This document shows, piece by piece, positions 907-63,510 of a DNA stretch of 64,000 nucleotides. Under the pieces are notes generated by a model. It did no database searches. It saw only the letters and a list, made by a program, of their open reading frames with translations, and was not told where the DNA came from. The stretch is from a phage, in the sequence record PZ338878.1; one strand, written 5' to 3'. The position numbers were made by a program, and so were the translations under genes. The first letter of the stretch is position 1. Every line of letters begins with the position of its first letter.

Positions 907-944
907 AAATCCTCCAAAAATAAAGGGGCTTTCGCCCCTTTTTA

Positions 945-3317: not shown

Positions 3318-4223
3318 TTATTTTTGAATAGTTGACTTGATAAGGTCTTGCATAATACCACGGATTTCGTTAAAGCACAGAAGGACAGATGCTTCAAAAG
3401 ATCCTTCTTCATCATTAAAGTATTTAGGGAATTTAATACCACTCAACTTAAATTCTTTATCAACAATAAAGTTAACGAAGCCGTCATATTCCAGGCCAAT
3501 GGCAACAACGTGCTTACCATCTTCCATAAGTTCTACTGCACGAGATTCATAAAGGGACTCTTTACTCCATACAACCACACCTTCCGAATCTTCAAGTTTA
3601 ATATAATTACCCAGGGTCAGTCGTTCAGCTTCATGTTCTTCTAAGATGGTATCAAAACCTTTAATAATGGCTTCTTCGTGTACACTAAACGGCAGAACTG
3701 GGAAAGTACCCAACACCTCACGAAGAAATACAGCAATATCTTCACTAATTTTCTTAGTACCATTAAGAACATAGGTAATACTGTTTTCAGTGTCTACAAC
3801 AACATAGTTATAGAAATCATCTGCCTCTGTTTCTGGGAGCAGAGAAAACACAATATCAGCCTCAATTGCTTTTTTGCTTTCTTTGTCCAAGAAGAACTCT
3901 TTAGTAGGATTTGCAGCAATAAACTCTTGTTCCATCTCCTGGAGTTTTTCATTAAGAATGCGTTTAACTTTCTTCTTGTTAACTTTCTTAACAGACTGCC
4001 CTACTTTAATAACCTCTAAACCAGAGAACACTTTTACATAGGAACCATCATCTTCAAAACGAACAAGACCAATGGTATGTGCTTGTTGCCCCTGTGCCAC
4101 AACAAAATCCAGCGGTTTGTCTGTTACTGTGTTCAGTGCTGAAATAGACAGACCATCACCAGAAATCAGGGTTACGCAAGATTTGAAATTTTTAGCAAAC
4201 ATAGTTTTCTCCTCAAATAACAA
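3318..4223 (-). CDS. rdgC: recombination-associated protein RdgC-like
   Basis: About 300 aa; blocks colinear with E. coli RdgC from memory (SLLPETEADDFYNYVVVDTENSITYV, ISEDIAVFLREVLGTFPVLPF). Confidence 0.55.
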   Translation of the reverse strand: MLFEEKTMFAKNFKSCVTLISGDGLSISALNTVTDKPLDFVVAQGQQAHTIGLVRFEDDGSYVKVFSGLEVIKVGQSVKKVNKKKVKRILNEKLQEMEQEFIAANPTKEFFLDKESKKAIEADIVFSLLPETEADDFYNYVVVDTENSITYVLNGTKKISEDIAVFLREVLGTFPVLPFSVHEEAIIKGFDTILEEHEAERLTLGNYIKLEDSEGVVVWSKESLYESRAVELMEDGKHVVAIGLEYDGFVNFIVDKEFKLSGIKFPKYFNDEEGSFEASVLLCFNEIRGIMQDLIKSTIQK

Positions 4224-5259: not shown

Positions 5260-5440
5260 TTATTTAAAATATTGTTCTAACAAAACACTAATGCGAACTA
5301 CCGATTCGCCCATATACGCCCCAGCACAGAGGAAAACAACAAATCTACAAAAATTGCAGTACCATTTGTTCACTGGAAACGAGGCTAACATTATAATTGC
5401 AATAGCAATTAACATCATAAGAACTGTTACTAATACCATA
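5260..5440 (-). CDS. small membrane protein (59 aa, below ORF-track cutoff)
   Basis: MVLVTVLMMLIAIAIIMLASF hydrophobic N-terminus; GAGG RBS; nested between ligase and MazG-like genes. Confidence 0.3.
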
Positions 5441-5448
5441 TTTACCTC

Positions 5449-6564
5449 TTACTCTGCTGGTTCCCAAGTACCTGGAATCATCTTACGTACACGTACCCCA
5501 ACAGGCTTGGTAGGAATACCTTCGTCTGAAAATTCTTCGTACTCAATTTCAACAAATTGACCAATAAGTGTCAAAGCATTTTCTTCTTTACGATAGTTAA
5601 TGGTTTCATCTGAATCCTTACGCATCAGGAATTCGACTACTTTACCATTTTCCATCTCGCCTGTCAATACCCCGTCACCATTTTTATCACGTTTTGCACT
5701 TACCACCTTAACTTCAAGCGTCTGCCGTGGTTTACGTTTAATAACATCATAAGAACGTTTATCAAACTCATAAACACCTTGTGCATTACGATAAACAACA
5801 CCTTCAGCTTTCTCACGCAGAGCTTTTGCATAGAATGCATCAAACTGCTCTTGGTTTTCAATGTACTCTGTATGTACTACACAAATAAGTTCATCTAAAC
5901 CTTTATCTTCAACAACTTCTTTTAGAGCAGCCAAAACTTCAACCCTCTTCTCAAATGGTACAGATGGCACAGGAACATCATATACATAGTATTTAAGAAG
6001 CGGAGTGTTAGCATTATGCTTTTTCCACGCACTATTAATTTGTTGAAGGCTAAGGACACCCAAACCAGCAAAAACTTCACCATCAAGAGGATGACCAACT
6101 ACTTCTTTAATGAAGGTTGGAATTTCTTTCCAGTGAGGTGGAAGTTTATATACCTCCCCAGCTTTAGATAAGCATTCACCTTGCATGTTAATCATTGAAC
6201 GTAGACCATTCAATTTATATTGTGCATAACCTGGGAACAAAACACGATCAGCATAATCTTTATAATCCTGACATTTCATGGGTGTGGAAGGAACATGGTT
6301 TTCAGCTTCCTCTTTTGTTTTGTAATACCCATTCTTAAGTTGCTTTGTCCATTTGGCAAGAGCTTCTATTTCAGCTTGTTCTTCTGCTGTTGTTTCATTT
6401 GAGCGACCAATATTTTTAGGTTCTGCCGTATAAGATTTGCTAGTAATCTTTCCACCTAATTGACCATGAGCAACAGTTACAACACTACCTTCGGTATAGA
6501 CTGACCACTGTTTAATTTTACCTGTAGAAGTTTTACCATACAATGTAGGATTAGTTTGTTTCAT
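5449..6564 (-). CDS. ATP-dependent DNA ligase
   Basis: Nucleotidyltransferase motifs KLNGLR (I), DGEV (III), EGVVYR (IV), DVIKRK (V). Start moved to ATG at 6564, which has a GGAGG RBS; the ORF-track start at 6612 lacks one. Confidence 0.6.
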   Translation of the reverse strand: MKQTNPTLYGKTSTGKIKQWSVYTEGSVVTVAHGQLGGKITSKSYTAEPKNIGRSNETTAEEQAEIEALAKWTKQLKNGYYKTKEEAENHVPSTPMKCQDYKDYADRVLFPGYAQYKLNGLRSMINMQGECLSKAGEVYKLPPHWKEIPTFIKEVVGHPLDGEVFAGLGVLSLQQINSAWKKHNANTPLLKYYVYDVPVPSVPFEKRVEVLAALKEVVEDKGLDELICVVHTEYIENQEQFDAFYAKALREKAEGVVYRNAQGVYEFDKRSYDVIKRKPRQTLEVKVVSAKRDKNGDGVLTGEMENGKVVEFLMRKDSDETINYRKEENALTLIGQFVEIEYEEFSDEGIPTKPVGVRVRKMIPGTWEPAE

Positions 6565-11049: not shown

Positions 11050-11243
11050 TTCTTAATAAACTCCAATACAGGTACGTGATCAGCAGTTAAAGTTACACAA
11101 TTGTAACTTACCTTTTCAACTTCAGAAAATGCTTCAACCCATAGCAAGAAATTCTCTTTAGCTTCTTCATAATTCAATGTTGACTTAACAACATGGAACT
11201 CACCAAGGATTACTCTATAGATTGTTTGCATAGTTTGATTCAT
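11046..11243 (-). CDS. hypothetical protein (65 aa)
   Basis: ORF, 4-nt overlap with next gene. Confidence 0.35.
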   Translation of the reverse strand: MNQTMQTIYRVILGEFHVVKSTLNYEEAKENFLLWVEAFSEVEKVSYNCVTLTADHVPVLEFIKK

Positions 11244-11309
11244 TTATTTTTCCTTTGTTTAAAATGTGTTAAACAATCGCAAATGCTTGTGACGCACTTT
11301 GTGATCCCA

Positions 11310-11717
11310 CTAATTAATGTCAGCACTATGATTGTTGAGAGTATAGGATACTCCATCGCCCAAGTCAACATGAATCTCAACTCCTAACTGTCTTTCTAAT
11401 GGTAAACGTTTTGAGAATTGATAATTACAAAATTTACAGTCTAAGTCAAGCAACTCATGTTTGCTTAAACCTGCAACGATAACTTTGCTTCCCACTGTCC
11501 ACTCAATACCTTCAAAGTTATCTCTTCTTTTCAAAATGTCAAGTAAGAAGATGATTTGTTGCCACTCCGTAGACAAGTCTTCTTCATAAAATGCAGAACA
11601 AAAAGTTTTATCATCGTAGAAAGCATACATTATGCCTCCATCTATTGTTTCACTTCTAACGTAACGTGTGACCCTCATTATTCCCTCCTGTATGGCTCTG
11701 TAACGAGCTAATAGCAC
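11310..11717 (-). CDS. hypothetical protein, first gene of the leftward early block
   Basis: ORF with AGGAGGG RBS; borders the divergent intergenic region. Confidence 0.4.
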   Translation of the reverse strand: MLLARYRAIQEGIMRVTRYVRSETIDGGIMYAFYDDKTFCSAFYEEDLSTEWQQIIFLLDILKRRDNFEGIEWTVGSKVIVAGLSKHELLDLDCKFCNYQFSKRLPLERQLGVEIHVDLGDGVSYTLNNHSADIN

Positions 11718-11809
11718 CTAAGATATGCAATCACCTTACCTCACAGTAAAACTCGTTACAATCGTTTTTAGGAGGTTCAGGTTGTACTTAAAAATAATCT
11801 AAAAAGGTG

Positions 11810-11838
11810 TTGACAAACGCAAAAAAGTATGCTACCCT
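11810..11838 (+). promoter_or_regulatory. sigma70-type promoter (TTGACA, 17-nt spacer, TGc-TACCCT)
   Basis: Perfect -35 and TG-extended -10 sharing the TATG-N-TA architecture of the other promoters here; transcript would begin at a CCCCC...GGGGG stem (11841-11871). Confidence 0.35.
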
Positions 11839-12019
11839 AACCCCCGAAAAACGCCGAGCGCAGCGAGGGGGTGTTATCTAATCTTGTGATACATGATCTA
11901 ACAGACAACTGAGTAGTCTACATATAGCACTATGTTATGTCTATAATACTAACATACATGCTCTATACTAACAATAGATTATTTATTAATTTTATTATTA
12001 ATTAAATAATAAATATCTA

Positions 12020-12048
12020 TTGACTTTAGATCTATCTGTATGTAGAGT
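12020..12048 (+). promoter_or_regulatory. sigma70-type promoter upstream of the prs-like gene
   Basis: TTGACT, 17 nt, TAGAGT preceded by TG; AT-rich upstream tract. Confidence 0.5.
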
Positions 12049-12087
12049 AGAGAACATAAAGTCCTAACTCAGCTAAGGAGATAAAAA

Positions 12088-52632: not shown

Positions 52633-52653
52633 AAAAGGGGCGAAAGCCCCTTT
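52633..52653 (+). terminator. rho-independent terminator
   Basis: AAAAGGGGC-GAAA-GCCCCTTT. Confidence 0.5.
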
Positions 52654-54671: not shown

Positions 54672-57491
54672 ATGTATCCTATTCCTTTATTTATGTCAAC
54701 AACATCAGCTTCAGTAGTAACAGCTACATCTATAACCACTTCCTCTATTGGTATTGCAATAGTTGGTAGTAAAAAGCAACTGACATACACAGTTTCACCG
54801 GAAGATGGTGCGTTATTTGATATAGCTTTTTCATCTTCAGATAATACCAAAATGGTTATAGATAATAATGGTATGATGGAGTTTGTTGCCGAAGGTGGTT
54901 TTGATGCAATAATGACAGCTAAAAATAATTTAGGTGCTGTCTTAACTGATCAATCTGGTGGCTATGCTTCAGAATTAAGTGTGTACACTGAAAGTCTGTC
55001 TGCTATGGATGCAGGAACTACTCAACAATTGGTTGCTACAATCAGTCCAGAAGGTGCTAAAGACCTTCCAGACATGGTAATTACGTACACCACAACAGAT
55101 CCAGAAGTAGCTACTGTAAGTCCTACAGGATTAATAACTGCTCTTAAAGATGGCAGTTGCCGTATAGGTTGCACTGCAACTTATCAAGGAACAGTGGTGG
55201 CCTCTGATAGTTCTTATTTAGGTGTTAATGCTGTTCCTGTTATTTCTAATGTAACAGCCGTGGCAAACAGCTATGGAGACATTCGTGTTGCTTGGGATGT
55301 AGCTGATCCGCTAGATGGTGATACTTATACTGTAGAAGTATTAGATTTAAGTAATAACAGTGTCCAGTGGACTACAACAACCACGAATACTTACGCTTAC
55401 TTTGATATCTCTGACTCTATTCCTCTTTATGGGTTTGCTCCAACATACCTTAAAATTAGCGTTAAGAGCACCAAAGCAGCACCCGTTATCTTTAATAACT
55501 CAATAGCTACAGATGATTCATTCATTAAAGAAGTTATTGTCTTTGCTGGACAAGATAACGTAAATGCACACTTTACAGAACTATCTGGTGCAAATAAAGC
55601 AGCAATGAGTAGCACAACAGCCCGTAATGCATATGCTACGCAACGTGGTTTAGCAAATGCTGAAGTTCTCCCGTTAAATACAGCTTCTGGATCATCAGCA
55701 GCAGATAAATATGCTGACGATAAAGCTGGAACAGGTACACCAGACAACTACTGGTATGATCTGGATAACACAGCAGATGGGCCATGCTTAACTAACTTTA
55801 TCACTAAAGTCACACCTTATGCAAGTAAGGTTAAAGCGATTATTTGGGGACAAGGTGAAAATGATGCTGTATCAGCATCTTCAACTGTTGCAGGTAGATA
55901 CAGTAACACTACACGTTACCATGATGCTACGATAGCTATCTTTGATAAGATGCGTACAATAGTTCCTGCTTCTCAAGCAAAAATTGTTTGGCAGATCCTA
56001 GGACGTTCTTATTTATATGGTGTAGAAGTTAATGGTGTGGATTGGCAGAAATACAGAAATGTACAAAGAACCATCTCTACAGCACGTGACGATGTTATCA
56101 TTGGTTCTTGGGTGGATGGTGCTGAACGCTACAGTGGTTATGTTTATGAAGAAGGTATTGCTGGTCGTATCCATTATATTTCTTCTGTATACCAAACAGC
56201 AGCTACAAAACTTGCTAAATCAGCAGCAGACGGTACAGACCTAACATCAACGTCACCTGTTTGGGTTGATATGGCTGTTCCAACTGGAGCAACAGCTATT
56301 TCCCAATCTAATCAAGATATAATTTTAGCATGGGATGCTCAAGGTTATAGTAAACACTACTTCCGTAATATTAACGTCTTAACAGCATCTGTATTAACTG
56401 AACAAACCCTTAATACGAACAGTTATACGTTTACCTATGCAGATCAAGTAGAACAATATGGTTTTGCAGCAGGTACTACGGTATTTGATGTTGCATATTA
56501 TGACGAAGCAAATGATGTGTTATCTCCTTTAGTACGTTTTAATGTTAGCGTTACAGCAGGAAAAGTAGAAGATAAACCTGTCGTGATGGATTATGATTTG
56601 ACACAAGAAACTCTTCCATCAGATGTTAAGGTTAATGGTGGGAACTCTTTTGCTCGTGCTTCTGGAGATAAACTTGTAGCCACTAACACCTTGGTTGCTC
56701 CGTTGGAGTATGTTGGTACTACCCCTGTAGGTAGACGTGTAACAGCTAACACAGCTACACAAATTTTTGTCAACAACGCCTTAACAAGCGCAAGCCCGTG
56801 GGTAAAGACCAACTTAACTGTTGCAGCTTCATCTGATAACTCTCCGGCTGGAACTACTGCTAATGTATTCAAATTAACTCCGACTACAACCTCTGGTAGT
56901 CATATCTTAACTGCAACATATACTAACGCGTACAACATATCTGCCGGACGTAACTGGTCTGCCTCTGTTTTCTTGAAAGCGAACGGGATTACTAAGGCCA
57001 AACTAAGATTAAAAGCAGGAACTGAAGTTAATGAGGGTACTTTTGATTTAGCAGCAGGTACATTCGCAGGAAGTGAAGCTAATATTATATCTATGGGCAA
57101 CGGTTGGTATCGTGCTATTCTGCATAAAACAGGGATAGCCAAACAGTCCTCCATAAGTTTTGAAATAATTGCCTTGGATGCAACTGGTGCGGAGATTTTC
57201 GCTGGAGATGGTACTAGTAACCTTGCAGTTTGGTTGCCACAGCTTGAAGGTGCTTCTACAGGAGACACATCAAAAGCTGGATCGCCTTATGTCTGCACAT
57301 ATCCTGGAAATTTAGGAGGAGTATCCTTCACTATACCAAGGAACGGACATACTGGTGTGGATGTTTACTATTCCAACGGAGACGTTGTTCGTGACGTATT
57401 CTCTGGTACGGCATCTACTTGGACAATAAACTACTCCAGCTTGTACGATTGGGGATCAGTCTTTATTACAGGTTTGAAATATTACGACTAA
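54672..57491 (+). CDS. tail protein with Ig-like segments and a SASA/SGNH-type carbohydrate esterase-like domain
   Basis: VIVFAGQDNVNAHF (GQxN block) and IWGQGENDA (QGExD block) resemble sialate O-acetylesterase motifs, with Asp in place of the usual Ser. Confidence 0.45.
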   Translation: MYPIPLFMSTTSASVVTATSITTSSIGIAIVGSKKQLTYTVSPEDGALFDIAFSSSDNTKMVIDNNGMMEFVAEGGFDAIMTAKNNLGAVLTDQSGGYASELSVYTESLSAMDAGTTQQLVATISPEGAKDLPDMVITYTTTDPEVATVSPTGLITALKDGSCRIGCTATYQGTVVASDSSYLGVNAVPVISNVTAVANSYGDIRVAWDVADPLDGDTYTVEVLDLSNNSVQWTTTTTNTYAYFDISDSIPLYGFAPTYLKISVKSTKAAPVIFNNSIATDDSFIKEVIVFAGQDNVNAHFTELSGANKAAMSSTTARNAYATQRGLANAEVLPLNTASGSSAADKYADDKAGTGTPDNYWYDLDNTADGPCLTNFITKVTPYASKVKAIIWGQGENDAVSASSTVAGRYSNTTRYHDATIAIFDKMRTIVPASQAKIVWQILGRSYLYGVEVNGVDWQKYRNVQRTISTARDDVIIGSWVDGAERYSGYVYEEGIAGRIHYISSVYQTAATKLAKSAADGTDLTSTSPVWVDMAVPTGATAISQSNQDIILAWDAQGYSKHYFRNINVLTASVLTEQTLNTNSYTFTYADQVEQYGFAAGTTVFDVAYYDEANDVLSPLVRFNVSVTAGKVEDKPVVMDYDLTQETLPSDVKVNGGNSFARASGDKLVATNTLVAPLEYVGTTPVGRRVTANTATQIFVNNALTSASPWVKTNLTVAASSDNSPAGTTANVFKLTPTTTSGSHILTATYTNAYNISAGRNWSASVFLKANGITKAKLRLKAGTEVNEGTFDLAAGTFAGSEANIISMGNGWYRAILHKTGIAKQSSISFEIIALDATGAEIFAGDGTSNLAVWLPQLEGASTGDTSKAGSPYVCTYPGNLGGVSFTIPRNGHTGVDVYYSNGDVVRDVFSGTASTWTINYSSLYDWGSVFITGLKYYD

Positions 57492-57492
57492 T

Positions 57493-57523
57493 AAAAAAGG
57501 AGCCATTAGGCTCCTTTTCTTTT
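57493..57523. terminator. bidirectional hairpin terminator between convergent genes
   Basis: AAAAGGAGCC-ATTA-GGCTCCTTTT with A/T runs on both sides. Confidence 0.55.
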
Positions 57524-57526
57524 ATC

Positions 57527-57958
57527 TTAATCAGTGAAAATTACGCTCACATCTTCTTTAGAGAAGAGTTTATGATCTTCACCTTTTGTCTCAAGAGTTT
57601 CATACAGGTTAAGAAGTTCTGAAACATCTTTCTCTACCAGTTTCTTCAATGTTGCAATTTTCTGTTTGCGATTCTTAATACGTTCAGCTACAACCTTACG
57701 TTGGTATCCAGCAGTACGATAACCTGAGAAAGTTACACCAGTAAGACTTGCAGTTACAGGATCGTAGTGACGTTCAATCTGAAATTTATTAAAAGGTACA
57801 GCGTCATCACGAATAATCTTACCGCCATTACTTACTTGACGAAGACCAGTAACTTGTTCCAGTCGTGCCATAGAAATCTTTGGAGACAGACCAGAGTCCA
57901 AATTCATACCGTTGTTAATCAGTGCTTTCAGGGTGATTTTGCTGTTCAGTGTACTCAT
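57527..57958 (-). CDS. hypothetical protein (143 aa)
   Basis: ORF overlapped at its 5' end by the methyltransferase gene. Confidence 0.45.
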   Translation of the reverse strand: MSTLNSKITLKALINNGMNLDSGLSPKISMARLEQVTGLRQVSNGGKIIRDDAVPFNKFQIERHYDPVTASLTGVTFSGYRTAGYQRKVVAERIKNRKQKIATLKKLVEKDVSELLNLYETLETKGEDHKLFSKEDVSVIFTD

Positions 57959-58646
57959 TTAGTCGTTCCTCCGCTTGCTTAAAAATATTTACATCGGCTT
58001 CACAGCCTAAGTATTCTCTACCTGTTAAAAGTGCCGCAACTTGTGTTGTTGCACTTCCAGAGAAGAAGTCTAAGACTACATCTCCTTCGTTGGTATGTAT
58101 ATTAATAAGGTCACAAAACAAAGTCAAGTGTTTTTGTGTTGGATGAAAACGATCTGCTCCTTGATAGATAGGATACTCAAACACACCCTTATGGTAGGAA
58201 GCATTGAAGGTTGGCTTCGAACCTTTAACACAAACAATAGCCATCTCTTTAGCGTTACTAAGGTAGTTAACACCACTGTTGATGGGTACAGGGTTTGTTT
58301 TAATCCATTCAATAGTACGGAACATACGAAAACCAAGCGGTTCAAGGATTTCACGTAGTTCCTGGATCTTCCAGATATCATACCAAACTATGCAAGTACC
58401 ACCTTTTCTAAGCACCCTATAGGCTTCTTTGAATACTTCTTTAAAGTAAGGAATATCTACAACATCCCAGTCACCAAAGTTGTAAGATACACGGAATCTA
58501 TCCGTATCTTTTCCAGTAGGTTCTCCAGATTGAAAATTTGTGTCACGAGAAATAGCATATGGTGGGTCAGTAAGAATCAAATCTACACTATTGCTTTCGA
58601 GGGTTTGCAGGTAGTTTAATGCGGTGTTGTTTACAAATTCGCTCAT
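57915..58646 (-). CDS. DNA methyltransferase (N6-adenine or N4-cytosine, beta-class motif order)
   Basis: Motif IV LILTDPPYAI precedes motif I VVLDFFSGSATT; GAAGGAGA RBS. Confidence 0.7.
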   Translation of the reverse strand: MSEFVNNTALNYLQTLESNSVDLILTDPPYAISRDTNFQSGEPTGKDTDRFRVSYNFGDWDVVDIPYFKEVFKEAYRVLRKGGTCIVWYDIWKIQELREILEPLGFRMFRTIEWIKTNPVPINSGVNYLSNAKEMAIVCVKGSKPTFNASYHKGVFEYPIYQGADRFHPTQKHLTLFCDLINIHTNEGDVVLDFFSGSATTQVAALLTGREYLGCEADVNIFKQAEERLNEYTEQQNHPESTD

Positions 58647-58657
58647 TATATCTCCTT

Positions 58658-58684
58658 CAAAGAAAAGGAGCCGTTAGGCTCCTT
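58658..58684 (-). terminator. rho-independent terminator, near-identical copy of the 57493 hairpin
   Basis: Minus-strand AAGGAGCC-TAAC-GGCTCCTT then TTTCTTTG. Confidence 0.5.
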
Positions 58685-58706: not shown

Positions 58707-59654
58707 TTAGAAACAGTGCAGGAAGTTTCGACCATATTGCAAACCAATAGGAGCAAACGGGATATCATCATCGAAATCTTGAACAACAGGTTCTGGTTCT
58801 TTCGGTGCTGGCTCTTTCTTCTCTACTTTTTTAGTTTCTTTCTTAACTTCTTGTACTGGGGTAGACATTCCACGGATAGCAGCAGCTACTTTATCAGACA
58901 AAGCAAGAACTTCACGAGCAGCTTCAATAATCTCTTCTGCCGTTACAGTTTTACCTGTATGATCACGACAAGCGTTAAGAATTGCGTGTCCAACTGAAGC
59001 ACCAAGATCATAGTCAGTTACATCAACGCCACGATCTTTAGCAATTTCAGCTTTCAGAGTAACAGTTGCAGATTGTACCACACCAGCCAAGTCGAAAGCA
59101 TCACCTTTCACACCAGCACGTAGAAGCTCCAGAGCGCCGTTTACAGCGTGTCCTGTTTCAATCCCTACGGTATCACGTTTTTTGTAGTTAGGCTTGTTAC
59201 CGTCATTATTAGATGGCTTATTTCCACCTTTTGAAGAGGATTGCGCTTGCTGAACACCTTCTGTTGAAAGAATAGTGATTTTACCTTTAGAGGAGTTGTA
59301 GTATGTTTTGCCATTCCATTCGGAAGGTTTAACATCCATAGTTAGTTCTACGCCTTTTTCGATAGTAACCCACTTATCACCATCTTTAACTTGCAGGTTT
59401 TCATGTTCTGGGTGCAGTTTAACTTCACCTAGGCTAACCCAAACACCTTTATCATCAGCACCAGCACCTTTCTCTTTAATAAGCAGAGATGCTTTGTGAG
59501 TTGATTCAATTTTCTTATCTGGCTGACCTGCAACCTTAATATAAGAGACTTTCATTTCATCAAACTTATCTAGTTTGACATATTCGACAATACCTTCAGC
59601 CCAGAATGCTTCTTTTTTAGTACGGCGGTCGATTTCAGAATTAATTACTGGCAT
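58707..59654 (-). CDS. single-stranded DNA-binding protein-like
   Basis: Acidic DFDDDIPF motif (as at the E. coli SSB C-terminal tip, from memory) near the C-terminus; Gly/Asn/Lys-rich linker; 315 aa. Confidence 0.45.
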   Translation of the reverse strand: MPVINSEIDRRTKKEAFWAEGIVEYVKLDKFDEMKVSYIKVAGQPDKKIESTHKASLLIKEKGAGADDKGVWVSLGEVKLHPEHENLQVKDGDKWVTIEKGVELTMDVKPSEWNGKTYYNSSKGKITILSTEGVQQAQSSSKGGNKPSNNDGNKPNYKKRDTVGIETGHAVNGALELLRAGVKGDAFDLAGVVQSATVTLKAEIAKDRGVDVTDYDLGASVGHAILNACRDHTGKTVTAEEIIEAAREVLALSDKVAAAIRGMSTPVQEVKKETKKVEKKEPAPKEPEPVVQDFDDDIPFAPIGLQYGRNFLHCF

Positions 59655-60112: not shown

Positions 60113-60706
60113 TTAAATCTTAAATTCTTCGTTGTTAAACGAATCTAGTGTACGTACTTCTGGTTTTTTGGGAATGAAAACGTCTTTTACAAAGCGGAAC
60201 ATAGGGAAACGTTCTGCCATTTTACGGACGTGTGCTTCTTTACCTGTGTATCGGTGATTAATAGTGCAAATATTAGTTTTCAATGCAAAGTCAAAATCTG
60301 GATGATATACATAATTTTGACCATCCCAGTAACACAGGCAAATAGCTACGTCAAAATTCCATACGATTTCACTGCGTACACCCTCTTCCATGATCATAAA
60401 GTTAAACTTAAGATCTTTATAGTATGCTTCAAATACCCATTTCAAATGTGGTAGTTCGGCATAAGTGTGTTCTGTTTGCTTAGTAAGTTGTTTAACATTA
60501 CGTGCACCAACACCCAACATCAAAAATTTCTCTACCAGTACGGTTGTATTGTGGTTAGGCATACGCAAGTAAATGTCAATATCTTGCGCAGGTGTTTCTA
60601 ATCGCCAGTCGCGTACAGCGCCGCCAGCTACAATTGCAAACGGATCTACCAGTTGGCACATACGTAATACTTCTAAAGCGCGTACTTTTTGATCTTCAAT
60701 ATTCAT
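60113..60706 (-). CDS. CCA-adding enzyme/poly(A) polymerase-type nucleotidyltransferase head domain
   Basis: AIVAGGAVRDWRLETPAQDIDIY matches the GGxVRD...DxD motif of class II tRNA nucleotidyltransferases; 197 aa. Confidence 0.5.
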   Translation of the reverse strand: MNIEDQKVRALEVLRMCQLVDPFAIVAGGAVRDWRLETPAQDIDIYLRMPNHNTTVLVEKFLMLGVGARNVKQLTKQTEHTYAELPHLKWVFEAYYKDLKFNFMIMEEGVRSEIVWNFDVAICLCYWDGQNYVYHPDFDFALKTNICTINHRYTGKEAHVRKMAERFPMFRFVKDVFIPKKPEVRTLDSFNNEEFKI

Positions 60707-60843
60707 ATTTTCTCCTATCTCTTATGGTCTTTGCGTTATTCTAGATGTTCAAACATCTAATTATGAAATGGTTTAAAAGTGCGGAACAACCTTGGCAATA
60801 ATAGATTGTCCCACATAAAAACTCCTTTAAAATCAAACAGATA

Positions 60844-63423
60844 CTAGTGACAACTGGCCCATGAGTTACCAACATCGTAACCAGCAGTGAGAGGTACATT
60901 AAGATTGTAATACTCACCAGCTTTATTAACAGCGATAGATGCTAATTCTCCAGCACGACTGTAGGCTGTAAACCAACCACCTTTCGGAGATTCATGTACG
61001 TTAGCCCAAATCTTGCCAGTACGTTTCTCTTCTTCTTCTTTCCAGGCGTTAACTTTATCCAAACATTCTTTATCAATTTTCTTTTGTTCTTCTGGATCAT
61101 CAACTTGAGTCCAACCTAAAGATTCTTTAGAGAACCATTTAAAATGCACTAGATCACGAGTTACTTCAAGCTGTGCTTCATCGTGATATGCAATCATTTG
61201 TTGAACGAATGACTTATTTTTCCAGTCATCAACAAAAAAGTCAACAGCTAATCCTTCTTCTTCGATAAGATCATCGTAGATAACCATTGCTCTTTTTGCA
61301 CAAATAACACCACCACTCTGGAACAGAGAGTTAAGTATTGCGTGTGCAGATCGTGTAGGTACTTTCCTACCATCAATACCAAGAATGTATTTCTTACCTG
61401 TTTTAACCCAAAAATCATGCAGACGTTCTTTAAGAAGCGCAAGAGGCTTTGCAGCTTCCCAGAAAGCATCGTATACAAGCTGTCCTGTATACATATCACT
61501 ACCAATAGTTTTTGCTACTTTTGCAGCTTGAGCACCATAGGTAATACCATATTTAACAGATTTAGCAGGGCTTCGTTCAAACTTACGACCAATAGTATCA
61601 GAAATACGTCGAGCCATCATTGTATGAACATCATTAGGTTTTTCCAACAATAGAGCGTTACAATATTCGTGTGGCTCCTGCTCGTACCGCCAACAGTAGT
61701 GTGATTCTATTTTTGCTTCAAGAGAATCGAAGTCATAACCAATCTGGAAGTATTTTGGAACTTCTACACCAAATAAGTTACGCATTTCATATCCGTACAG
61801 AGATGTTACACGTGGAATGTTTGCTACTAATCTATGTTTCATACGAGACGTAGCTGCATCACACGTTGCAGCAGGAGTTGGTATACGACCATCAGCCCTT
61901 ACTGCCGCCAGATAACCTTTATCGTAATCCTCTTCATCTTCTTCCCAATCAGCACCACCACCTAGAATAGAGTTTCTACGATGTTTATACGTAAGATACT
62001 GCACAATCTGCGTAGCATAAGGAAACTTTTCACCCAGTGCTTCCAAGTTAGGACAAATATCTTTCTCTTGCCCTTTTGTAAAGGAAGGGTTAGTAAGCAC
62101 TTTAACACCACGACCTTTAGCTTTAGCAATACGATCTCTTAGTTTCCATTCCAAAGTTTCTGGTGTGCACTCCAGATGATCACATCTATCCTGGCAGAAG
62201 TTAGATGCTAATGTTTGATCAACATAGTCACGAATAGCCTTCTCCATTTGTGCTTCATCTTTCTTAATCTTAGTGCCAGATTTAAGAGTGATATCTTTAT
62301 CTTTATATTCAGATGGACTCCAACCTAAACCAACTAACCAATTTTTAATATGTGTAGTGTCGTCTAAAGTAGCAGGTACTGTAGGATCACAAATAGGTTC
62401 TTCTGCTGGAATAGGTAGTTTAAACTCTTTACCTAATGCAAATAACCACCAACCATCTTCTTTTTGTACAAGTTCACCAGAATGTTTCTCTGCAAACTTT
62501 AGCATGTTACTTGAAGGTTCACCATTCTTTTTAAACTGTAGTTTAGGTGGAATGAATGATTTCAAATAACCTTTAGTAGCAGGTTTAGGAGGTAGCACAG
62601 GTTCTGCCTCTAAACGACATGCTTCCATTCGAGCATCCAGATCACGAATATTATCCTCTGCTTGTTTCATATTGAAAGCAAAGCCACGGTGCTCTTGACG
62701 TGTAATAATATCAGCTACACGTTGTTCTAAGTTAAATGGTTCAGACCACTTATTATAATCACCCCACTCTTCCATCAAATAACGGAACACTGCGGTGTTA
62801 GCTTTGTTATCGTAAATACAGTAATACAGCATATCTGCTGCAAATGTTCTAAATCTTTCAGTTTCAGGGATGTTTTTTCTAAAATCAATTTTAACATCCC
62901 CTCCAGCTTTCTTAGATAACTCTGCCAGACTATGACCACCGAAGCGATCAGGGTTTAGTGTCTTACTTAAGATCATAGTATCACAAATTTCAATGTTACT
63001 ATTACCCCAAGTATTGTACTTAATACTGTAGTTGAGTTTAAAAAATAATTTAATTGCCAGTAAGTCGAAGTTAATGATGTTGTGTCCAACTACTTTGGTA
63101 ATTTTATAGTTTGAATTACCTTTAAATTTACCTGTTCCATTTACAAAATCAGGAAAATCTTTAAGAGGGAAATGGGTATATTCTAAATGCTCATATTCCT
63201 CCAGTCGGTATTCATACTTTCCGTCAGTCTCAATATACGGACGACCATCGAAAAGATATTTATCACCATCATGGAAAGCAATAATCTCTCCAGTATCATG
63301 ACTTTCACACACAATACAGTGCATTGCAAAACTATCTTTTAAACGATATGGACTTGCCAAGTAATCTACACTTTCGTCATTAAGCAAGTTGTTACTTTCA
63401 ATGTCGAAAGTAAAAGCTCCCAT
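60844..63423 (-). CDS. DNA polymerase, family A, with 3'-5' proofreading exonuclease domain
   Basis: FDIESNN (Exo I); DFDSLEAKI (motif A-like); KSVKYGITYG (motif B); YHDEAQLEV (motif C); AAGGAGGGAGA RBS. Confidence 0.75.
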   Translation of the reverse strand: MGAFTFDIESNNLLNDESVDYLASPYRLKDSFAMHCIVCESHDTGEIIAFHDGDKYLFDGRPYIETDGKYEYRLEEYEHLEYTHFPLKDFPDFVNGTGKFKGNSNYKITKVVGHNIINFDLLAIKLFFKLNYSIKYNTWGNSNIEICDTMILSKTLNPDRFGGHSLAELSKKAGGDVKIDFRKNIPETERFRTFAADMLYYCIYDNKANTAVFRYLMEEWGDYNKWSEPFNLEQRVADIITRQEHRGFAFNMKQAEDNIRDLDARMEACRLEAEPVLPPKPATKGYLKSFIPPKLQFKKNGEPSSNMLKFAEKHSGELVQKEDGWWLFALGKEFKLPIPAEEPICDPTVPATLDDTTHIKNWLVGLGWSPSEYKDKDITLKSGTKIKKDEAQMEKAIRDYVDQTLASNFCQDRCDHLECTPETLEWKLRDRIAKAKGRGVKVLTNPSFTKGQEKDICPNLEALGEKFPYATQIVQYLTYKHRRNSILGGGADWEEDEEDYDKGYLAAVRADGRIPTPAATCDAATSRMKHRLVANIPRVTSLYGYEMRNLFGVEVPKYFQIGYDFDSLEAKIESHYCWRYEQEPHEYCNALLLEKPNDVHTMMARRISDTIGRKFERSPAKSVKYGITYGAQAAKVAKTIGSDMYTGQLVYDAFWEAAKPLALLKERLHDFWVKTGKKYILGIDGRKVPTRSAHAILNSLFQSGGVICAKRAMVIYDDLIEEEGLAVDFFVDDWKNKSFVQQMIAYHDEAQLEVTRDLVHFKWFSKESLGWTQVDDPEEQKKIDKECLDKVNAWKEEEEKRTGKIWANVHESPKGGWFTAYSRAGELASIAVNKAGEYYNLNVPLTAGYDVGNSWASCH

Positions 63424-63464: not shown

Positions 63465-63493
63465 ACTGTACCATAAATTAATTGTTTTGTAAA
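63465..63493 (-). promoter_or_regulatory. sigma70-type promoter for the DNA polymerase gene (TTTACA, 17 nt, TACAGT)
   Basis: Minus-strand reading; about 35-nt leader containing the RBS. Confidence 0.4.
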
Positions 63494-63510
63494 GGGGCTT
63501 TCGCCCCTTC
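63491..63510 (-). terminator. hairpin terminator downstream of gene 63514-63999
   Basis: GGGGC-GAAA-GCCCC then TTTAC on the minus strand; overlaps the -35 of the polymerase promoter. Confidence 0.35.

Follow-up and report, generated by a model that had tools for sequence, protein, structure and literature searches.

Morons, in the concept of the Hendrix group, are extra genes with their own promoter and terminator that are inserted between conserved genes. Intercistronic partial terminators, or attenuators, set unequal expression of genes within an operon. According to the statement for which PMC12210895 cites PMC3837797, the accepted, presumed role of orphan phage methyltransferases is the shielding of phage DNA from host restriction. 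Several orphan methyltransferases are carried by Justusliebigviruses; the literature on these phages contains general remarks on such enzymes only and nothing about the hairpins described here.

The locus studied here is located in the window, that is, the whole stretch of 64,000 nucleotides of phage DNA that was analysed (PZ338878.1). In this part, the window has 98-99% identity to numerous phi92-like myoviruses of E. coli (Justusliebigvirus, Stephanstirmvirinae), and the genes of the region in those phages are homologues of phi92 gp154, gp155, and gp156. The original prediction described a cassette of a DNA methyltransferase gene and an overlapping 143-aa partner enclosed by two copies of one hairpin. 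The list of open reading frames and a match to PF01555 agree with this gene content. The elements of the locus are as follows.

54672..57491, plus strand: tail fibre / tail protein gene, converging on the cassette and ending at hairpin 1 (list of open reading frames, Big_2 domain; lateral tail fibre in relatives)
57493..57523, no single strand: hairpin 1 (T_B), predicted bidirectional intrinsic terminator, A6-GGAGCC-ATTA-GGCTCC-T4CT4 (folding, terminator scan, annotation of phage Paula)
57527..57958, minus strand: 143-aa partner ORF, homologue of phi92 gp154 (phrog_20244, E = 4e-83)
57915..58646, minus strand: orphan beta-class N6-adenine DNA methyltransferase, 243 aa, homologue of phi92 gp155 (PF01555, phrog_67)
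58652..58657, minus strand: Shine-Dalgarno sequence AAGGAG of the methyltransferase gene, directly past the U-tract of T_A (read from the sequence)
58658..58684, minus strand: hairpin 2 (T_A), predicted intrinsic terminator, AAGGAGCC-TAAC-GGCTCCTT followed by TTCTTTG (folding, terminator scan, annotation of phage Paula)
58707..59654, minus strand: SSB-like gene, homologue of phi92 gp156, closing the replication block ahead of hairpin 2 (phrog_4477; SSB in the annotation of several relatives)

The best explanation is that two transcription units of a phi92-like phage converge here and that the hairpins are their rho-independent terminators, with the cassette residing in a variable slot between the hairpins. 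We assign this reading a probability of about 0.85.

Reading of the sequence gave AAAAGGAGCC-ATTA-GGCTCCTT at 57495-57516 for hairpin 1 and AAAAGGAGCC-GTTA-GGCTCCTT at 58663-58684 for hairpin 2. The positions and the difference of a single loop base are thus as originally described. The hairpin was also said to be found nowhere else in the window, and this holds true: a search of the 64-kb window with up to 3 mismatches recovered these two sites only, and none are expected from dinucleotide shuffles of the window. The GGAGCC hairpin has the same two sites, and no others, in the complete 146.5-kb genome of Paula, a close relative. The claim that both copies have the same orientation is more equivocal. 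In a repeat search, the pair scored nearly the same in both orientations, with 89% identity over 27 nt if read as direct and 85% complementarity over 26 nt if read as inverted, because the stem is palindromic and lies between A and T runs. Only the 4-nt loop favours the direct orientation: on the minus strand it reads TAAC in hairpin 2 and TAAT in hairpin 1, so that three of the four positions match. A match of three of four or better has a chance probability of about 5% (~0.05).

Hairpin 1 begins 1 nt past the stop codon of the tail-fibre gene (57489-57491) and lies 3 nt from that of the 143-aa ORF (57527-57529), the two stops being convergent. Its predicted folding energies are -15.7 kcal/mol on the plus strand (z -4.2) and -19.1 kcal/mol on the minus strand (z -5.4), with U-tracts of T4CT4 and T6, respectively. 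Like in bidirectional terminators, the A-tract on the other side serves the second strand at this hairpin. The replication-gene operon, from the DNA polymerase to the SSB-like gene, is encoded entirely on the minus strand. Hairpin 1 thus appears to be a bidirectional terminator at the point where the plus-strand tail-fibre gene meets this block, and it would stop both transcription units. Hairpin 2 is located 22 nt past the stop codon of the SSB-like gene. It has an 8-bp stem followed by U4CU3 and folds with -14.7 kcal/mol; the z values across both hairpins range from -3.1 to -5.4. Its U-tract, TTTTCTTTG, is present on the minus strand only, and the terminator scan likewise reported this strand only. 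Hairpin 2 would end the transcript of the SSB-like gene and limit transcription into the cassette.

In the annotation of the sister phage Paula (LR865361), the hairpins are already recorded as terminators, hairpin 1 as numbers 029-031 and hairpin 2 as number 028; the feature is known in kind. The suggestion of the original prediction that the hairpins are terminators that delimit the cassette transcriptionally is well supported by the stable folds, the U-tracts, and this annotation, and both probably terminate transcription in vivo. They share with intrinsic terminators the GC-rich stem, the 4-nt loop, the U-tract, and the intergenic position at the ends of transcription units. Also as in intrinsic terminators, the structure is kept among relatives while its sequence has changed. 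There is no essential difference from this class; the stem shared by two neighbours is the only oddity, and one that is common in this genome. A search of Rfam gave no family above threshold; the only matches, all below it, were to sRNA models with a generic terminator at their end.

Since stems are reused within the genome, random sequence is the wrong baseline for judging the hairpin pair. Sixteen of the 20 strong terminators of Paula belong to stem families with multiple copies, such as GGGGC (five copies) and CCCGC, GCCCC, and GGGCGC (three copies each), and a random pair of these terminators has the same stem with a probability of 0.105. Adjacent pairs with the same stem were observed three times, against 2.0 expected from shuffling (P = 0.32). 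The window itself contains three copies of AAGGGGC/GCCCCTT, at 922, 52634, and 63492. Outside this genome, AAGGAGCC-N4-GGCTCCTT was detected in at least 120 contigs of IMG/VR, the composition-matched control stem AAGCGAGC/GCTCGCTT giving 20. Among the matches listed, about 30 different loops were present and 114 of 121 occurrences had an A and/or T tract beside the hairpin. The hairpin is thus a generic terminator of phages, although this genome has no further copy of it. The wide reuse of GGAGCC as a terminator stem explains why both sites have the same one.

Four diverged relatives with the same cassette in the same slot, L164, L165, L166, and L167, were found via homologues of gp154. Their gene order is SSB-like gene, HNH gene (in some), terminator, methyltransferase gene, gp154, terminator, and converging tail gene. 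The amino acid identities shared with the window are 78-86% (methyltransferase), 56-66% (gp154), and 54-74% (SSB-like protein). In all four, the stems at T_A and T_B are unlike, and all of them fold and are followed by a U-tract:

L164: T_A GGGGC-TTCG-GCCCC; T_B GGGAGCCTC/GAGGTTCCC
L165: T_A identical to hairpin 2 of the window; T_B GGGAACCTC-GAAA-GAGGCTCCC
L166 and L167: T_A GGGGCTGC/TAGCCCC; T_B GGGAGCC-AAT-GGCTCCC

The identity between L165 and the window extends over 33 nt, comprising the hairpin, its tail, and the RBS, while the DNA of the methyltransferase gene is 73% identical. Relatives thus carry the same genes without matching repeats, the very outcome that the original prediction had named as its refutation, and the idea that the repeats mark a footprint was not borne out. 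Within Justusliebigvirus, the cassette is fixed: 56 records encode an SSB-like protein of at least 90% identity, and the number of records in which 80% or more of the cassette query is covered is likewise 56. Neither hairpin varies within the genus, as judged from the ~95%-identical JohannJBalmer group, and no covariation signal was found there.

Other relatives have an empty or differently filled slot. The SSB-like protein of one IMG/VR phage group, which includes L011, L012, and L014, is ~62% identical to that of the window. In L012, the slot is empty and two GGAGCC hairpins are spaced ~20 nt apart; their loops, GAAA and TTTC, are exact inverted copies, and each hairpin has a GAAA loop in its own transcript. 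In L014, T_A is followed by TTGACG-17-TAATAT, which resembles a sigma-70 promoter, then by a gp154-like gene with 38% identity, and finally by T_B. The same TTGACG-17-TAATAT is present in L011, where an HNH gene is located ahead of T_A. T_A is thus kept without the methyltransferase in L011, L012, and L014. One hairpin and no cargo were found in phAPEC8, L013, L015, SSE121, and Klebsiella phage 05F01, the stem in phAPEC8 being GGGAACC and unlike that of the window. An HNH endonuclease gene occupies the slot in nieznany and Mt1B1_P17. Across Stephanstirmvirinae and related phages, the interval between the terminators of the SSB-like and tail-fibre genes is therefore a slot whose cargo varies.

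The hairpins occupy corresponding positions in these lineages. At least three different stems were found at the T_A position and at least four at the T_B position, and all of them fold. The hairpins at the T_B position in phAPEC8, nieznany, L164, L165, L166, and 05F01 have different, compensated stems. The flank motif ATAAGG..CCTTTTCTTT.G is common to hairpin 2 and T_A of other lineages, and ATAAAAGAAAAGG..CCTTTTTTATT is common to hairpin 1 and T_B and also surrounds the one hairpin present in phAPEC8 and in nieznany. We have moderate confidence in this apparent positional equivalence, which was established by eye on short flanks of low complexity. The GGAGCC stem appears to be old at both positions and was probably not duplicated by the arrival of the cassette.

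The three-of-four loop match is the one feature that the terminator account leaves to chance, and gene conversion is a minor rival here. Under concerted evolution, the two terminators would be old and independent, and one would have been overwritten in Justusliebigvirus by gene conversion between the 22-bp repeats. This would explain the near-identity of the loops, which are TAAC/TAAT here and GAAA/TTTC in the L012 group. A tendency of copies to spread locally is hinted at by the GGGCGC terminators, which lie within 5.4 kb of each other in another part of the genome. However, L165 combines the exact T_A, including the TAAC loop, with an unrelated T_B, so that T_A with TAAC predates the genus. 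Klebsiella phage 05F01 in turn has a TAAT loop at its T_B position. The two hairpins of the window also have different flanks, which match those of their positional counterparts in other lineages, and a loop match with a probability of ~0.05 may be coincidental. We consider gene conversion unlikely.

Two further alternatives involve exchange between phages. Unrelated T1-like phages possess a near-identical terminator of ~38 bp at the same tail-fibre/SSB junction, and megablast with the L012/L014 lineage gave matches in unrelated phages that did not extend beyond the hairpin. One could imagine that the slot between convergent terminators is dedicated to cargo exchange, with the GGAGCC terminator as a crossover patch through which unrelated phages trade accessory genes such as this methyltransferase pair, and with the near-identical loops in this genus as the trace of an exchange or conversion; we regard this as quite improbable. 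The related proposal, that the shared hairpins are short patches of homology by which slot cargo is swapped between phages and that the repeats function in cassette mobility as well as in termination, is in our view very improbable. It accommodates the varying slot content (empty, gp154-like gene, HNH gene, or methyltransferase plus gp154) and the shared T1-like terminator. Nevertheless, the T1-like similarity is limited to the terminator itself, the two hairpins are unlike in the lineages that carry the cassette, the ~56 Justusliebigvirus genomes show no polymorphism in its presence or absence, and 22 bp of mostly palindromic sequence are a poor substrate for homologous recombination.

Searches of the cassette ORFs for domains and PHROGs revealed no recombinase or integrase gene, the repeat search found no other notable repeats flanking the cassette, and the GC content of the cassette (0.39-0.40) is as in the flanks. 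An acquisition footprint, in which entry of the cassette duplicated a resident terminator or brought a copy along so that the repeats are insertion boundaries, has in its favour the exactly one junction hairpin of the phAPEC8-type relatives and the loop match in direct orientation, but it is the least probable of the readings and appears largely refuted by L012 and L164-L167, since a site without cassette should have one copy (L012 has two GGAGCC hairpins around its empty slot, and phAPEC8 has one with a different stem), genomes with the cassette should have matching repeats on both sides (those of L164-L167 are unlike), the stem is generic, and the signs of mobility listed above are missing.

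The terminator account thus retained leaves the question of how the cassette is expressed. The methyltransferase matched PF01555 (N6_N4_Mtase) with E = 1.9e-30 and 106.9 bits, the Pfam cut-off being 26.7. In its translation, LILTDPPY, with the DPPY catalytic motif, is located N-terminal to DFFSGSATT, which represents the FxGxG AdoMet motif. Among solved structures, it is closest to the beta-class adenine methylases 5HEK (E = 1e-28) and CcrM (6PBD), and its homologues carry a methyltransferase annotation in relatives; the label 'Dam-like' in MZ501100 is an annotation only. As in orphan phage methyltransferases, the enzyme is a solitary beta-class N6-adenine methyltransferase with no gene for a cognate restriction enzyme, and its role is presumed to be anti-restriction. 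It differs from them in having a conserved partner, phrog_20244, which overlaps it in another frame: the start of the 143-aa ORF overlaps the 3' end of the methyltransferase gene by 44 nt. The partner had no match in Pfam or NCBIfam, and phrog_20244 is a PHROG without assigned function. Homologues of gp154 form four clusters only, and the AlphaFold2 model of gp154, made from a 4-sequence alignment, is of low confidence (pLDDT 53, pTM 0.27). Gp154 is paired with the methyltransferase in L008 and L164-L167; in L011 and L014, the gp154-like gene comes without the methyltransferase and has a promoter-like site of its own.

The slot resembles morons in that variable cargo, bounded by terminators, is located between conserved neighbours and varies across genera. 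The full moron layout of terminator, sigma-70-like promoter, gene, and terminator is present in L011 and L014. In contrast to morons, the cassette of the window is fixed in its genus, has the GC content of its surroundings, and has no promoter between the upstream terminator and the methyltransferase gene according to a sigma-70 scan. The gap between hairpin 2 and the methyltransferase ATG is 16-18 nt and holds the RBS only, so that a promoter cannot fit there. The closest sigma-70-like site (58731-58703) is located upstream of hairpin 2, and its transcript would therefore contain the terminator. The notion of a transcriptionally insulated module is thus half right: terminators are present at both ends, but the cassette, with no promoter in these 16-18 nt, likely relies on read-through.

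Such read-through is the most likely mode of expression, as judged from the four methyltransferase lineages, in none of which a promoter was found between T_A and the ATG (~10-20 nt). The cassette would be transcribed from the replication-gene operon via partial read-through of T_A, which would keep the methyltransferase at a low, catalytic level compared with the abundant SSB-like protein. This arrangement resembles attenuators, in that a terminator stands between the SSB-like protein, needed abundantly, and the methyltransferase, needed catalytically, with the RBS directly downstream and the position conserved in four lineages. The spacing of terminator, RBS, and ATG in L164, L165, and L166 is the same as in the window. 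Unlike in attenuators, neither an antitermination factor nor an alternative, regulatory structure was identified. Hairpin 2 looks like a fairly strong terminator and, if it is efficient, read-through might yield too little methyltransferase. The main alternative to read-through is a phage-specific promoter, which may be invisible to a sigma-70 scan; no conserved motif was seen by eye around T_A in the window, L164, L165, and L166.

Beyond annotation the locus matters little, the cassette being an annotated orphan methyltransferase plus a hypothetical protein. A methyltransferase gene that is always located directly behind a terminator without its own promoter nevertheless makes a testable case of read-through dosage control. 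Since the same few terminator stems recur in phages, relatives should be checked before identical neighbouring hairpins in a phage genome are called insertion scars.

The SSB-like protein contains DFDDDIPF, which is followed by an extension of 15 aa. This extension is possibly the remnant of an HNH gene.

The hairpin at the end of the tail-fibre gene (hairpin 1) resembles a terminator of T1-like phages. Approximately 38 bp around this hairpin (window 57488-57526; TAATAAAAAAGGAGCC-loop-GGCTCCTTTTCTTTTATC) are, with the exception of the loop, about 95% identical to the T1-like sequence (L005 2500-2540), which is located between tail-fibre and SSB genes, the same type of junction as in the window. 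Carriers of such terminators include Tlsvirus phSE-2 and many siphoviruses of Klebsiella, Citrobacter, and Salmonella, all of which are unrelated to the phage studied here. No further similarity was detected between the genes flanking hairpin 1 and those flanking the T1-like terminator. Judged from sequence, this likeness could reflect either convergence or exchange.

Terminator stems recur across the genome. Two sets were recorded in the window and in the 146.5-kb genome of the close relative Paula (LR865361):
Window 922-941, 52634-52653, and 63492-63509: three copies of the AAGGGGC/GCCCCTT terminator
Paula 28859, 30015, and 34223: three GGGCGC terminators within 5.4 kb
The former stem is present five times in Paula, and its loop is always GAAA or TTTC; the GGGCGC cluster of Paula is located among small early genes. 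In L012, a relative with nothing inserted between the terminators of the SSB-like and tail-fibre genes, the two neighbouring terminators (3915-4025) are inverted copies of one another. In folding calculations, RNA of the pair from either strand is able to form a single long hairpin (about -49 kcal/mol).

Members of the gp154 family (phrog_20244), the conserved partner of the cassette methyltransferase, were recorded in the window (57527-57958), in L008 (3689-4093), in L164-L167, and in L011 and L014. In five lineages, one of them (L008) with a differing genomic context, the gp154 start overlaps the 3' end of the methyltransferase gene by 29-44 nt. The version found in L011 and L014 is 38% identical and stands alone, downstream of its own promoter-like site. 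The invariant core of the protein is TGLRQVSNGGKIIRDD..PF.KF; its AF2 model was poor. The two cassette ORFs share an identical 10-mer, TTAATCAGTG, which spans their stop codons (window 57527-57536 and 57915-57924), and both proteins end in -TD*. The shared 10-mer is probably due to chance.

The SSB-like protein encoded upstream of the cassette has a C-terminal extension (minus strand, window 58707-58751): after its DFDDDIPF motif, the canonical tail of SSB proteins, come 15 additional residues, APIGLQYGRNFLHCF. The IPF that normally ends such proteins is thus internal. This extension is shared by SSE121, rV5-like MaxBurger, nieznany, and Mt1B1_P17, and the compared proteins of phAPEC8, 05F01, L011-L015, and L164-L166 lack it. 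Within the extension of nieznany and MaxBurger, an HNH endonuclease ORF (ATGGTCGAAACTTCCTGCA...) begins in another frame, and the first nine codons of that ORF are retained in the window. By sequence comparison, the extension may be a remnant of an HNH gene or else a genuine part of the protein.

The DNA polymerase gene of the window (60113-63423; 859 aa) contains no intein. Phage PaulScherrer (L002), which is 98.5% identical to the window, has an intein in its polymerase; compared with the window, PaulScherrer also possesses an additional ORF adjoining the nucleotidyltransferase-like gene.

At least two more DNA methyltransferase genes are annotated in this phage group outside the cassette:
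Paula record 5349-5858 and 11069-12058 (L156): phi92 gp056-like and gp043-like methyltransferase genes
Four methyltransferase CDSs are mentioned in the paper on phage BME3. GenBank also has several entries named 'Campylobacter phage' (MG065639, MG065689, and others) whose sequence over the region matches these E. coli phages at about 98% identity; these entries look like mislabelled or contaminant assemblies.
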